Positions 6,669 through 54,183 of a DNA stretch of 64,000 nt are shown piece after piece. Each line of letters begins with the position of its first letter. Positions within the stretch are counted from its first letter, which is position 1. A program made the translations under genes and the position numbers. The notes beneath the pieces are model-generated. The model had not been told where the DNA came from, did no database searches, and worked only from the letters and a program-made list of their open reading frames with translations. The stretch comes from an uncultured Candidatus Micrarchaeota archaeon (GTDB lineage: Archaea > Micrarchaeota > Micrarchaeia > Micrarchaeales > Micrarchaeaceae): assembly GCA_963741095.1 (NCBI GenBank), contig CAVUGN010000002.1, forward strand, positions 192,001-256,000, read 5' to 3'.

Positions 6669-6775
6669 AGCCCCAAGAGGGAATCAAACCCTCGACCTTT
6701 TGCTCTGTGGCTTTTGATAAAACTTTTACCAAAAGTTTTTACCATGCAAACGCTCTATCACTGAGCTACTGGGGC
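6669..6775 (-). tRNA. tRNA-Thr(GGT) with a 35-nt canonical 37/38 intron (6705-6739)
   Basis: Acceptor GCCCCAG/TTGGGGC, anticodon arm TTTGC-ATGGTA[intron]A-GCAAA, T-arm GAGGG-TTTGATT-CCCTC; intron forms hairpin CTTTTGGTAA/TTATCAAAAG. Confidence 0.9.
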
Positions 6776-50950: not shown

Positions 50951-52897
50951 TCAGTGCCTTATGGGCAGGTCGATCAACGTCTTCCCATCAGAATAGGCAT
51001 ACCTGCCTGTGCCGTCTATATTCCTGCGTTCCACGTAGAACCCTTCCGGCAGTATCCCATCCTTCATGAGTTTCCTTTGTTTCTCTATCAGGTCGAGCCC
51101 ATCCACTTTTCTGTGCCTTATGGCTTCACCCCTGATCAAGTGAGCATACAGTTCAAGATATTGGCCATGTTTTATCTTGTTTTCGGTGTCTATACTCACA
51201 ACCAGGCGGTCCTTGACTACCTCCTGCGTTGCGACTATGCGCATGACCGATGCCTGTGCCATCGCGCCGCTGCCGTAATAACACACGGCGCACGTCTTCG
51301 GCTTGTCCAAACCGGTTTTCAGCGCAGCATTCTGCAACAGACTCGCCAAAGCAACGAATGTAGCGCCCGAATAAGAGTTACCGACTATGGATGGAAGTTT
51401 CAGCGCCTCATTCAGACGTATCCTCTTGATGAATGCCTTGCATTCATCCTGCGCCCTCACATCACTCAGCCATTGCCAATAACTCGTTATGTCGGAGTCC
51501 TTGTCAATGTGATCGACTATCTCGTCCTCATTCCTGATGCCTGTTGAAGAATTGCGGTTGAATTCATACAACTTATCGTCAAGCATATCCGTCAATTTCT
51601 TGTAGCCGGCCAGAGGCTCTTTGCCGATAACCCTTCCTGGCTCACCTGGGATTTTACTTGGAACAACCCTCTTCCCAATCTCATCAAGCAGTTTTGGGTC
51701 CTTGAGTCTCAAGTAATGCACGAACAGCGATCCTGCAAATTTCTTCGCCTGCATCGGGAAAGGTACATGGCTTACAAAATAATCAATGCATTCTACAAGG
51801 TCTCTACCGTTGTTTTTGTATTCCTTCTCAAGAGCTTCGACGACTTTTGCAACCATAAGCACATACGTCTTTTCGGAGAAAGTTCCATGTACAAAAGGCA
51901 TCTCCTCACCAAATTTCGTAAAGTCCGGCATGGACATGTGCCTGAATTTGCTCTCACCCATTACAACTGCAAGTTCCGGATTTTTTGTGACCCACAATAG
52001 CGTTGCCGCAGCGCCCTGTGTAGAATCCGCACCTGCGGCTCTCTTGGAATCGTAGATTGCAGTATCCGAAGTAATGACGAGCGCAGAGCAATTTTCGCCC
52101 CTATCTATCGCCGCATGCACGTTATTCACGGCCTGCGTCAGAGCTATTCCTCCACCCGCGCAGGCATAAGTAATCGGTACTGGCTGTGCCCCTTTCATCA
52201 TTTGTATAATCTTCATCTGTATGCTTTTAGGATCCTGATCCTCCATCAGAAGTTTAGAATACACCATCTGTAGCGCTGTGGTAAGTTCCGGTTTGCTTCT
52301 GTCCGGATTGCTCTCGGTCGCATAATATATGTACCTTATCGGTTGCTCCTCCAGCTCGTTCATTGCTTCCTTGCTCGATGTCGCATTCTTGATGAACTGG
52401 TATACTGCGTTTGCCGCATAAGTCGCATTGCCCTCCGCGTAGCCTGGAAGTTTTGTATTTTCAATGCCCAAGCCATCTCTTATCAAGCCAGCCTCAACTT
52501 TCTTCACCGTATGCAATACTCCATCGGGGTTTTTCACCGGTTCTATCGACTTTACCCACTCCGGAGTCACCAACCCTTTCGTAACCATATCCTCGAGCAC
52601 TTTATTCAACTCTGCTCTTGAAAAGGTGTTCTCCACCACTTCGACAAGCTCCGCCCGGATGCCATCAACAACGTACTTCATCGCATTCTTATTTTGCCCC
52701 ATAACTCCCAAGGCAATTCCTGCAAGACCACCATAACAGAGTATGCTGTTGTTGTCCATCCTATGCAGATGATTGACAACCTCGTTCTGCATGTTCCTTA
52801 TGGTGATTGCTTGCGCAAGCTCTTCTGGTGATATGCTAAGAGTGGGGGTCGTCACGACCATCCTGTCAATTCCAACGGGGACTGATTTCTCTGCCAT
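50951..52897 (-). CDS. mvaS: HMG-CoA synthase-like protein with large insertions (about 650 aa)
   Basis: VGID, GLG, ATES (Glu), YACAGG (Cys), D.A.Y, TQGAAA, SHVPF (His), VGNSYSG, YGSG. Confidence 0.75.
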   Translation of the reverse strand: MAEKSVPVGIDRMVVTTPTLSISPEELAQAITIRNMQNEVVNHLHRMDNNSILCYGGLAGIALGVMGQNKNAMKYVVDGIRAELVEVVENTFSRAELNKVLEDMVTKGLVTPEWVKSIEPVKNPDGVLHTVKKVEAGLIRDGLGIENTKLPGYAEGNATYAANAVYQFIKNATSSKEAMNELEEQPIRYIYYATESNPDRSKPELTTALQMVYSKLLMEDQDPKSIQMKIIQMMKGAQPVPITYACAGGGIALTQAVNNVHAAIDRGENCSALVITSDTAIYDSKRAAGADSTQGAAATLLWVTKNPELAVVMGESKFRHMSMPDFTKFGEEMPFVHGTFSEKTYVLMVAKVVEALEKEYKNNGRDLVECIDYFVSHVPFPMQAKKFAGSLFVHYLRLKDPKLLDEIGKRVVPSKIPGEPGRVIGKEPLAGYKKLTDMLDDKLYEFNRNSSTGIRNEDEIVDHIDKDSDITSYWQWLSDVRAQDECKAFIKRIRLNEALKLPSIVGNSYSGATFVALASLLQNAALKTGLDKPKTCAVCYYGSGAMAQASVMRIVATQEVVKDRLVVSIDTENKIKHGQYLELYAHLIRGEAIRHRKVDGLDLIEKQRKLMKDGILPEGFYVERRNIDGTGRYAYSDGKTLIDLPIRH

Positions 52898-53050
52898 AAT
52901 ATCACTACGACTTAATCTATTCACTATTTAAATGTCGTTCTGGCATTAGTCAATTGTCGTAGTACACCGAAAAAGTGGAAAACAAGGAAAAGATTGCGAT
53001 TGGGCGCCCAAACAAAAGAGCAAATCCCAATCGCGCCATAGATCGCCCGC

Positions 53051-53617
53051 TCACAACGACACGCTCAGCCTGGAAAGGTAAGCCCAGACCTTGCTGTCGT
53101 CGAACCACGCGTTTGTCAGCACCTCTTTGTCCAGCAGCGGCGTGACCACCAGTATGAACGCGCACGTTGTGAGCAGGTGCATCGCGGTGAACGGTATCTG
53201 GCCTATGAATGCTGCCTGGAAGGTCATCCCGAACATGAGCGGCGTAGCCAAAACTCCAGTGACAAAGTCGAAGGCCAGCACCCCAAGAATGCCGCAGCCC
53301 AGATACGTCTTTATCCCTACCTTGTCTTTGTTCTTGAAGTAATAATGGAATGCGAGCCCTATCACTCCGTAAGTGACGGCAGTAACCAGCGTCCAGGATC
53401 CGAGCAGGTTTGTGATGAAATCAAACGAGACCATCGTTATGAACGGAAATATGAACGAGGTCAGCGCCGAGCTCCTTTTCGAATAGGGCAGCGCCATCGA
53501 CATTATGGGGTCGTTGTTCGGTATTATCCTAAGCAATCGTATCCCGTTGGCTATCAGGATGGACAGTACCATCCTGATCTTGTTGCTGTTGCTCATCCTC
53601 TTGTTCGGTTTTTCCAT
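53051..53617 (-). CDS. Solitary ECF S-component, BtuM/CbrT-like (putative cobalamin uptake)
   Basis: About 190 aa with about 6 TM; RLL..IPN.DPI..MAL motif, QIPF..H; cobalamin riboswitch upstream. Confidence 0.7.
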   Translation of the reverse strand: MEKPNKRMSNSNKIRMVLSILIANGIRLLRIIPNNDPIMSMALPYSKRSSALTSFIFPFITMVSFDFITNLLGSWTLVTAVTYGVIGLAFHYYFKNKDKVGIKTYLGCGILGVLAFDFVTGVLATPLMFGMTFQAAFIGQIPFTAMHLLTTCAFILVVTPLLDKEVLTNAWFDDSKVWAYLSRLSVSL

Positions 53618-53745
53618 ATCATCTCCATTCTAGATTTTTTATCGTAACGGCTCGTTGCAAATCCCTGAGAAAGTGGATGCGAAGACTTCCAGTTAAAAAA
53701 AAGGCCATTCAGCGTTTCCATCTCTACCATGCTCGTGGGCATATA

Positions 53746-53853
53746 CCGGACCCAGGCAGACTGGCTTACCCATTATGGGATTACAGTTGCGGCACAGCAG
53801 TGGATTTTCACCACTTTCCCCTGACTTCCACTGGATCTGAACCCAGTTGTCCG
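53746..53853 (-). promoter_or_regulatory. Cobalamin riboswitch aptamer
   Basis: Minus strand CGGAC...AGGGGAAAGTGGTGAAAATCCACTGCTGTGCCGCAACTGTAATCCCATAATGGGTAAGCCAGTCTGCCTGGGTCCG; matches the B12-element core and B12 box; P1 CGGAC/GTCCG. Confidence 0.88.
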
Positions 53854-53933
53854 TTAATTAGCCTTCATAAACAATATCTATAAAACTATCTCCGCTCCGC
53901 GGAACACAAAAAGAGTCGTAACTAAGCGACAGA

Positions 53934-54007
53934 CGCCCCTGCCGGGATTTGAACCCGGATCACAGGCTCCGGAAGCCCGCGTTCTATCCAAGTTATACCA
54001 CAAGGGC
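53934..54007 (-). tRNA. tRNA-Arg(CCG)
   Basis: Cloverleaf with anticodon arm CGGGC-TTCCGGA-GCCTG and T-loop TTCAAAT. Confidence 0.95.
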
Positions 54008-54041
54008 AGAAGACCGAAGACACCATCTGACAAGAATGTTA

Positions 54042-54115
54042 CGCCCTTGTCGGGATTTGAACCCGAATCACAGGCTCCGCAAGCCCGTGTTCTATCCAAG
54101 TTATACTACAAGGGC
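54042..54115 (-). tRNA. tRNA-Arg(GCG)
   Basis: Cloverleaf with anticodon arm CGGGC-TTGCGGA-GCCTG and T-loop TTCAAAT. Confidence 0.95.
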
Positions 54116-54183
54116 ACAAAGATTTTAATATGCCTTATGCTTTATACACTTTACACATTAATGCTTTAAAGTCCGCTGATTTG

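Follow-up and report, generated by a model that had tools for sequence, protein, structure and literature searches.

The riboswitch locus

The 64-kb stretch of archaeal DNA analysed here (64,000 nucleotides, called the window) carries on its minus strand a cobalamin riboswitch of the bacterial RF00174 type and, downstream of it, a gene for a small membrane protein of family DUF6580. The window sits on a 265-kb contig; the assembly to which this belongs measures 1.08 Mb, with a completeness of 94% and a contamination of 1%. In the direction of transcription the locus comprises an archaeal TATA-like box (53879–53886), the cobalamin aptamer, bounded by the two strands of P1 (53747–53853), a regulatory hairpin called P13/L13 (53727–53738), a 42-codon upstream open reading frame (uORF, 53593–53721) with a T8 tract inside it (53695–53702), a Shine-Dalgarno (SD)-like element (53618–53626) and the gene for the 188-amino-acid (aa) DUF6580 protein, a putative solitary corrinoid importer (53051–53617). 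Taken as a whole, the evidence makes it probable that this is a functional archaeal cobalamin riboswitch which works as a kissing-loop translational OFF switch, and that the DUF6580 protein is a probable importer of B12 or another corrinoid.

A cmscan search of all 64 kb against Rfam 15 gave a sole riboswitch match, to RF00174 (Cobalamin) at 53732–53869 on the minus strand. It spans the full model (positions 1–189) and scores 40.0 bits against a gathering score of 31.5 (E 1.2e-6), which bears out the cobalamin riboswitch proposed in an earlier, sequence-only reading of this DNA. The B12 core and the P1 helix named in that reading (CGGAC at 53853–53849 paired with GTCCG at 53751–53747) can both be read directly in the sequence; in the alignment to RF00174 the core consists of GGGAA..GGUG..UCC, GCCGCAACUGU and the B12 box AGCCAG..GCC. 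P2 is present, P6 is a short hairpin in which 58 model positions of the P6 extension are replaced by 2 nucleotides (nt), and the peripheral P6 extension of class-I members, which are selective for adenosylcobalamin (AdoCbl), is absent. Loop L5, the proposed kissing partner of L13, is UGCCG (53790–53794) according to the Rfam structure line and not the TGTG suggested earlier. The match, together with the compensatory changes described below, confirms as far as sequence can that the element is a true cobalamin riboswitch of bacterial RF00174 type in an archaeon; from its family membership, the compact aptamer would be expected to bind a cobalamin. Folding the leader by minimum free energy gave no useful signal (z-scores 0.29, -0.68, 0.67 and 1.03).

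The TATA-like box TTTTATAG lies where the sequence-only reading had placed it, and its position is kept: a match to TTATA, TTTAT or ATATAA precedes the GGGAA core by 57–66 nt, and P1 by about 30 nt, in all 15 aligned archaeal loci. Since archaeal TATA boxes are usually centred about 26 nt upstream of the transcription start, the transcript is predicted to begin at or within about 3 nt of P1, near 53854–53857. One peat metatranscriptome, kept as contigs, contains a 203-nt contig of a relative that covers 53715–53824, as well as pieces over the tRNA region; it gives no ORF cover, transcript ends or strand information. In most of the riboswitch promoters of loci L001–L012, a TTG follows 4–6 nt after the TATA hexamer (TTATAAnnnTTG; alignment A2, columns about 37–52), perhaps as a promoter element shared across the lineage or as a site bound by a protein. 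Two tandem tRNA-Arg genes with CCG and GCG anticodons (53932–54008 and 54041–54116, minus strand) lie directly upstream of the riboswitch promoter in the same orientation, and there may be read-through from them into the aptamer.

Distribution and conservation of the switch

The genome holds a second RF00174 copy on another contig (36 bits). Matches above the cut-off were found in 4 of the 41 nearest relatives, in 13 of 151 genomes sampled from the order and in 4 of 151 in the phylum sample. By family, and leaving out the window's genome (G000), the order sample divides into 4/74 for f1, 8/75 for f3 and 0/1 for f2; in the phylum sample, 80 genomes from 18 other families gave no RF00174 match. 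Judging by these counts, the switch appears to be patchily distributed and confined to two families among the genomes searched. As for the pair of aptamer and gene, which the sequence-only reading had suggested looking for in related genomes, the aptamer is present in 13 of 151 genomes of the order, and it lies upstream of a DUF6580 gene in eight archaeal loci.

Fifteen archaeal copies, 14 from the order sample and one from a record named ‘Candidatus Micrarchaeota archaeon’, were aligned; with three metagenome loci (L189, L142 and L141) they make up the 18 archaeal loci referred to below. Pairs were counted with the Rfam-derived structure applied to the 15-copy alignment. (A structure from RNAalifold on a MAFFT alignment was set aside in its favour, having P4 shifted and P1 missing.) In this structure 93.0% of cells pair, and 11 of the 31 pairs show changes on both sides, compared to 4.7 ± 1.3 in shuffled alignments, none of 500 of which reached 11; when the 3′ partners were shifted along the alignment as a control, at most five pairs did so. 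The covariation score is 0.190 versus 0.100 in shuffles. Compensatory changes occur in P4, P2, P6b, P1 and the lone P3 pair, and the P5 closing pair changes from G-C to A-U in metagenome copy L189. The archaeal switch is thus, by the pattern of its substitutions, evidently conserved and under selection. The window aptamer retains all invariant positions, and its 40 bits are among the higher scores of the archaeal copies. The best bacterial match to a model built from the archaeal aptamers is in a Saccharibacteria metagenome-assembled genome (MAG).

The expression platform

An invariant 12-mer, CCACGAGCAUGG, lies directly after P1 in all 15 aligned copies; it is kept in metagenome copies L189 and L142 and, as UCACGAGCAUGG (UCA-CGAGCA-UGG, with a U-G pair), in L141. 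This is the P13/L13 hairpin CCA-CGAGCA-UGG, a 3-bp stem (CCA/UGG) with a 6-nt loop, CGAGCA. An AUG stands 4–7 nt behind P13 in all 18 archaeal loci and opens an ORF of at least 177 codons in 15 of them (the L013 ORF has 39 codons). The hairpin ATGC-CCACGA-GCAT pointed out in the sequence-only reading can indeed form here (-3.3 kcal/mol), but it occurs in the window only, the conserved register being CCA-CGAGCA-UGG (53738–53727), and the pairing of its CCACGA loop with TGTG is replaced by a proposed one of L13 (CGAGCA) with L5 (UGCCG). L5 is likewise invariant in the 15 aligned copies, and the two invariant loops can form five pairs with one bulged A.

A scan for the P4-L5 motif, with one genome per species, found at least 80 loci, and 79 of the 80 matches listed are labelled bacterial (Chloroflexota, Cyanobacteria, Patescibacteria, actinomycetes and others). 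Seventy-eight bacterial matches among those listed had enough downstream sequence and an identical L5; a hairpin loop of the form CG-N(1-2)-GC-N closed by at least three pairs follows in 59 of these 78, compared to 15% of shuffles, and CGAGCA is the commonest such loop among them (19/59). The 3′ arm of the hairpin in these listed matches is often GGAG or GGA, a bacterial SD sequence. Because CGAGCA is the commonest loop in bacterial switches with the same L5, the archaeal hairpin is, by analogy, best regarded as the counterpart of bacterial P13/L13 and the kissing partner of L5.

The 16S rRNA 3′ ends of two related genomes read ...GGAUAGAUCACCUC (GAUCACCUC) and not the usual GGAUCACCUCC (no 16S 3′ end is present in the window's own assembly), and AGTGA, GGTGA and GTGAT are the k-mers over-represented ahead of ORF starts in the window's genome. 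Most of the archaeal platforms seem to have no clear SD, and a role of the invariant UGG(U) as SD is unproven because GGUGA follows P13 in only 3 of 18 loci.

The window's insert

In the window, an insert of about 104 nt separates P13 from the transporter ORF. No second copy of it occurs in the genome or among the other loci compared, for which reason the idea that it is a repeat or mobile element was rejected. The uORF opens within it and is unique to the window locus; the uORF's AUG (53721) lies 5 nt after P13, and its UGA stop shares the sequence AUGA with the AUG at codon 8 of the transporter ORF, an overlap of the type seen in coupled genes. A frameshift error in the T8 tract, which would make uORF and ORF two parts of a single gene, was rejected as an explanation because three stops stand in the ORF frame upstream of the AUG.

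The T8 tract, a possible archaeal oligo-U termination or attenuation site, lies 24 nt after P13. It is present as the sequence-only reading stated, but it does not hold up as the terminator of a general design: a run of at least five T's within 150 nt after P13 occurs in only 2 of 18 archaeal loci, the window (T8) and L011 (T5). Oligo-T termination therefore lies outside the conserved mechanism and is at most a feature added in this locus, whether as an attenuator coupled to the uORF or as an indication that switch and gene have become uncoupled. Runs of eight or more T's number 14 on both strands of the 1.08-Mb genome in a crude census that used crude ORF calls. The SD-like element GGAGAUGAU stands directly before the transporter's first AUG, and an A/T-rich sequence, GATAAAAAAT, lies about 20–29 nt before that AUG.

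The DUF6580 protein

The 188-aa product of the transporter ORF, which is single copy in the genome, meets the Pfam family DUF6580 (PF20221) with 28.7 bits against a gathering score of 27. DUF6580 is matched by 29 of its 42 homologues and ECF-ribofla_trS by 8 of the 42, which are distant members; one NCBI record carries the name ‘DUF6580 family putative transport protein’. An AlphaFold2 model made from the 42 homologues has a predicted local distance difference test score (pLDDT) of 93.3, a predicted template-modelling score (pTM) of 0.86 and seven helices. Its six-helix S-component fold is that of the energy-coupling factor (ECF) transporters: Foldseek against the PDB has ECF S-components in each of the first 14 ranks (FolT, ThiT, RibU and PanT; TMq 0.49–0.64, probability 0.90–1.00, E at least 0.016 for all). 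BtuM is not among the best 50 Foldseek matches listed. A profile of the 42 homologues run against the PDB gave only one match, 6FNP_A (E 0.003, 20.4 bits, residues 10–149 against 15–158). The 6FNP entry is the ECF-CbrT vitamin-B12 transporter (PMC5997447), and its 182-residue ‘membrane protein’ chain is presumably CbrT. Neither phmmer nor the profile search of the PDB matched BtuM at E up to 10.

Eighteen columns are invariant in the 42 homologues, including R27, P33, D66, Y83, D117, Q140 and H147, and there is no Cys among these or among the 12 nearly invariant columns. The description of the protein as a six-helix, ECF S-component-like membrane protein thus stands, but its assignment as BtuM-like does not: it has no invariant Cys, which argues against membership in the BtuM family, and no BtuM profile match, and its only solved sequence relative is CbrT. 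No ECF genes had been seen beside it, and in fact no EcfT/CbiQ (PF02361) match was found in the whole 94%-complete genome by a search that was positive in 11 of 14 controls and did not extend to ECF-type ATPases. The protein would thus behave like BtuM as a solitary S-component while standing outside the BtuM family and being, by its sequence, distantly CbrT-like. Import of B12 or a corrinoid is its most likely function.

In a metagenome set of 80 loci encoding relatives of the window protein, a switch found with the archaeal model R1 lies directly upstream in three of the closest relatives (64–75% identity). In 3 of 20 more distant loci (L208, L210 and L214), whose S-component homologues are 35–42% identical to the window protein, another B12-type element, RF01482 (AdoCbl riboswitch; 54–58 bits), lies just downstream of the S-component gene, in company with a DUF4430 gene. 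A search with the window protein did not find DUF6580 in four other riboswitch-bearing genomes, an empty answer that shows little. Locus L210, from a low-GC organism, has the order RNR-like gene (RNR, ribonucleotide reductase), S-component homologue (PF07155), RF01482 and DUF4430 gene, which recalls the Lactobacillus delbrueckii cluster nrdJ-cbrS-cbrT-pduO as it is given in PMC5997447. In the window, oligo-T runs (T4, T3, T4, T4, T5) follow the transporter stop at 52960–53050 (minus strand) and TTTAAATA precedes the next gene, and for these reasons the transporter looks monocistronic.

B12 economy and regulon

The sequence-only reading had named B12-dependent enzymes such as class II RNR as something to look for, and one is present: the only PF02867 match in the genome is an 807-aa protein that matches NrdJ (TIGR02504) with 555.5 bits against a cut-off of 399.95. 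NrdD was not found in the 94%-complete genome, and NrdJ is the only RNR found in it. A PduO-type adenosyltransferase is present (173.9 bits), and there are four PF02310 matches, three in proteins resembling radical S-adenosylmethionine enzymes and one in the protein of about 750 aa behind the second riboswitch. Neither CobA nor CbiB turned up in this 94%-complete genome. By its gene content, the organism thus appears to depend on B12 (NrdJ, PduO) and to be unable to make it.

The genes behind the archaeal switches fall in with this picture. Besides the eight loci with a DUF6580 gene, the switch precedes a B12-binding-domain protein in L002, L003, L005, L006 and L009. The first of these is the second switch of the window's genome (L002/L018, G000 contig C4:114792-117189), whose ORF, truncated by the end of the contig, covers at least 750 aa and has as its only recognizable domain a central B12-binding PF02310 (residues 294–400, with the motif GADHHDRG). 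In L007 (genome G052) the switch precedes a secreted protein of the BtuF type (Peripla_BP_2, 38.1 bits) with an immunoglobulin-like N-terminal part; the order may thus have another route of B12 uptake, with this protein as its binding component. The switch also precedes uncharacterised ORFs in L010 (402 aa), L012 (177 aa), L013 (39 aa) and L031; the L010 and L012 ORFs have no Pfam match, and all four are candidates for new B12-linked proteins. The N-termini of the L012 and L031 ORFs look alike. As predicted from these sequences, the regulon looks to be what is expected of a B12 switch.

Host and neighbouring genes

Of the four tRNAs that Rfam detects in the window, two, at 1158–1254 and 6669–6775 (minus strand), have archaeal intron-type insertions, 38 nt in the anticodon loop of one and 11 + 13 nt in the other; since ARAGORN reports neither, they are probably intron-bearing archaeal tRNAs. 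Neighbouring genes in the window encode RtcB, a histone-fold protein and a GT4 glycosyltransferase. The sources of the transporter homologues are labelled Candidatus Micrarchaeota, Micrarchaeales, Diapherotrites or ‘archaeon’, and two related genomes with the same riboswitch have an archaeal 16S rRNA (1415 and 1325 bits to RF01959). The host is, on these markers, evidently a Micrarchaeota-like (DPANN) archaeon, and the archaeal origin of the segment assumed in the sequence-only reading is supported by the intron-bearing tRNAs, the Micrarchaeota-named homologues and the 16S genes of the relatives. The 16S gene of one related genome (G126, L222) spans 1999 nt, and since the model has 1478 positions it probably carries an insertion or intron. 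A 657-aa ORF at 50951–52924 (minus strand) has weak matches to the N- and C-domains of 3-hydroxy-3-methylglutaryl-CoA (HMG-CoA) synthase; it has a long extra N-terminal region and is unusually long for that enzyme.

Proposed mechanism and its alternatives

In the mechanism proposed here, the archaeal TATA promoter would start the transcript at or a few nt before P1, and the compact aptamer would bind cobalamin. Ligand binding would let L5 (UGCCG) kiss the loop of the weak 3-bp P13/L13 hairpin; the kissing loop should stabilise P13 and lock the RNA just upstream of the AUG that stands 4–7 nt behind it. Ribosome start at the P13-proximal AUG would thereby be blocked, giving a translational OFF switch as in the bacterial kissing-loop cobalamin switches. 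The claim that the switch controls the transporter gene can therefore be kept in a modified form. Control appears to be direct in 7 of the 8 DUF6580 loci and indirect in the window, where the uORF-bearing insert intervenes: because the P13-proximal AUG opens the uORF there, control of the transporter must pass through the uORF. Two routes, both speculative, can be envisaged: an RNA no longer covered by ribosomes might be terminated at T8, or the two reading frames might be coupled through the AUGA overlap.

Several points weigh against this interpretation. The L5-L13 pairing is argued from conservation and bacterial analogy rather than from covariation, since L5 and L13 never vary among the archaeal copies. 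A stretch of 45 stop-free codons is not unusual by chance and translation of the uORF is putative, and a transporter gene with an SD-like element of its own could escape control by the switch. The 203-nt contig of a relative in the peat RNA library may be DNA carry-over. The link between DUF6580 and B12 is one of association: the match to CbrT is borderline (E 0.003), the top Foldseek matches are folate, thiamine, riboflavin and pantothenate S-components with E values of at least 0.016, Rfam finds no cobalamin riboswitch in 20 loci whose homologues are 48–62% identical to the window protein, and solitary CbrT is reported in PMC5997447 not to have supported B12 uptake in Escherichia coli. Lastly, the genome is 94% complete, so genes not found in it are not necessarily absent.

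Two alternatives concern how the switch is read out in the window. Oligo-T tracts terminate transcription by archaeal RNA polymerase, and on untranslated RNA the factor FttA/aCPSF1 causes polarity. The read-out here could be mainly transcriptional, the riboswitch gating termination at T8, likely via the uORF: when the nascent U-tract is untranslated and exposed, the polymerase would stop before the transporter gene. The T8 tract lies 24 nt after P13 inside the uORF, whose AUG is the very one placed under P13 control, and T8 runs are rare in the genome by the crude census. On the other hand, 16 of the 18 archaeal loci have no run of five or more T's within 150 nt after P13, the gene AUG follows P13 directly in 7 of the 8 DUF6580 loci, the insert is unique to the window and the relative's peat metatranscriptome contig shows no transcript ends, and a mainly transcriptional read-out seems unlikely. 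More specifically, the locus might be a rewired attenuator in which B12 blocks translation of the 42-codon leader and transcription stops at T8, intrinsically or through FttA/aCPSF1, with read-through when B12 is scarce and the leader is translated; we regard this as quite doubtful, although, if true, it would be a case of ligand-controlled, translation-coupled transcription attenuation in Archaea. The insert might instead have uncoupled the switch from the transporter, so that the switch governs just a short uORF, or nothing of use, while DUF6580 is expressed from its own signals. This would account for a unique insert between P13 and an ORF that has its own SD-like GGAGAUGAU and the A/T-rich GATAAAAAAT before its AUG, and T8 could then end the leader transcript. 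It has slender prospects, however, given that the aptamer is intact at 40 bits with all invariant positions kept, that, as in coupled genes, the stop of the uORF shares bases with an in-frame AUG of the ORF, and that any separate promoter for the ORF is hypothetical.

Two further alternatives concern the substrate and the origin of the DNA. DUF6580 could carry another compound, such as cobinamide, a lower-ligand base or an unrelated vitamin. Its closest folds are FolT, ThiT, RibU and PanT, its distant members match ECF-ribofla_trS (8/42), and homologues outside Micrarchaeota are mostly without a riboswitch (0/20). These observations are set against the cobalamin riboswitch directly upstream in eight loci, a CbrT as the only solved sequence relative, the failure to find a CbiB or CobA that could use incomplete corrinoids, and sister targets of the switch that encode B12-binding and BtuF-type proteins, all of which make a different substrate rather improbable. 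The aptamer family and its L5/L13 motifs are otherwise bacterial, with 79 of the 80 genome matches listed for the L5 pattern so labelled and the best non-archaeal match to the archaeal model (86.4 bits) in the Saccharibacteria MAG, which could suggest bacterial DNA present through contamination, mis-binning or a very recent transfer that is unexpressed in the archaeon. The element, however, is flanked by tRNA genes and genes of archaeal type (RtcB, the histone-fold protein and intron-bearing tRNAs) inside a contig of 265 kb, 13 genomes of the order have it, with TATA boxes and compensatory changes, and the archaeal copies score 111–136 bits on their own model compared to at most 86 for bacteria; bacterial DNA of this kind is almost certainly not the explanation. 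A translational switch of archaeal residence with a corrinoid importer among its targets remains our preferred interpretation.

Comparison with known systems

The archaeal riboswitch classes listed by McCown et al. 2017 (PMC5473149) are those for thiamine pyrophosphate, fluoride and flavin mononucleotide, together with Mg2+-I and guanidine-II, and cobalamin is not in that list. The cobalamin class is described in passing as widespread ‘in bacteria and archaea’ in PMC9600662, in a remark that gives no example, and no paper describing a cobalamin riboswitch in an archaeon was found in the literature searched, supplementary tables being outside its scope. The same literature search found no papers on DUF6580. 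The fluoride riboswitch of Thermococcus kodakarensis, referred to in PMC8241225 as the only experimentally determined natural archaeal riboswitch, is also a bacterial-type class in an archaeon and presumably also acts on translation; its ligand and fold differ from those of the switch described here.

The closest known systems are the bacterial RF00174 translational switches with an L5-L13 interaction (clan CL00101), such as E. coli btuB and the marine env8 class-IIa switch, for which the L5 kissing loop is described as the regulatory switch of the bacterial class (PMC6158498, PMC9600662). Core, helices and B12 box are the same as in the archaeal element, many copies from Chloroflexota, Cyanobacteria and Patescibacteria have exactly the archaeal L5 (GCUGUGCCGCA), and the L13 sequence CGAGCA is identical as well. 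According to these sources, the bacterial kissing-loop switches are likewise read out by a hairpin next to the start site. The archaeal switch differs in its host, its TATA promoter and its P1-proximal start; its P13 is only 3 bp long with UGG as the 3′ arm, whereas the bacterial 3′ arm is often an SD sequence such as GGAG, and its AUG lies 4–7 nt behind P13, mostly with no recognizable SD. In addition, P6 is unextended even though P2 is present, and the window adds a uORF with a T8 tract.

Among B12 transporters, CbrT of the ECF-CbrT complex (L. delbrueckii, PDB 6FNP, PMC5997447) has the same fold class as DUF6580 and the same kind of link to B12 through nrdJ- and pduO-type genes. The sequence similarity is very weak, DUF6580 has its own specific motifs (IPNNDPIM and GQIPFT..HL), and CbrT, by the account in PMC5997447, needs an ECF module, whereas no EcfT was found in this genome. 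BtuM of Thiobacillus denitrificans is also a small S-component-fold protein without an ECF module and linked to B12 uptake (PMC6072759). The same source describes BtuM as mostly proteobacterial and gives it an invariant cobalt-ligating Cys (Cys80 in BtuM-Td), which has no invariant counterpart in DUF6580.

To these systems the window adds a DUF6580 target, the L13 match with bacterial copies and the uORF/T8 insert. The switch also points to further B12-linked genes, namely the protein of about 750 aa with a B12-binding domain and two unknown families, and it would offer a first testable function, corrinoid uptake without an ECF module, for the uncharacterised DUF6580. By such means, reduced symbionts of this kind, unable to make this essential cofactor, would sense it and ration it. 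Riboswitches are seldom found in Archaea, and an archaeal cobalamin switch, with its TATA box at a fixed distance and its invariant hairpin 4–7 nt before the start codon, would serve as a model for how a bacterial-type aptamer can be coupled to archaeal gene expression.

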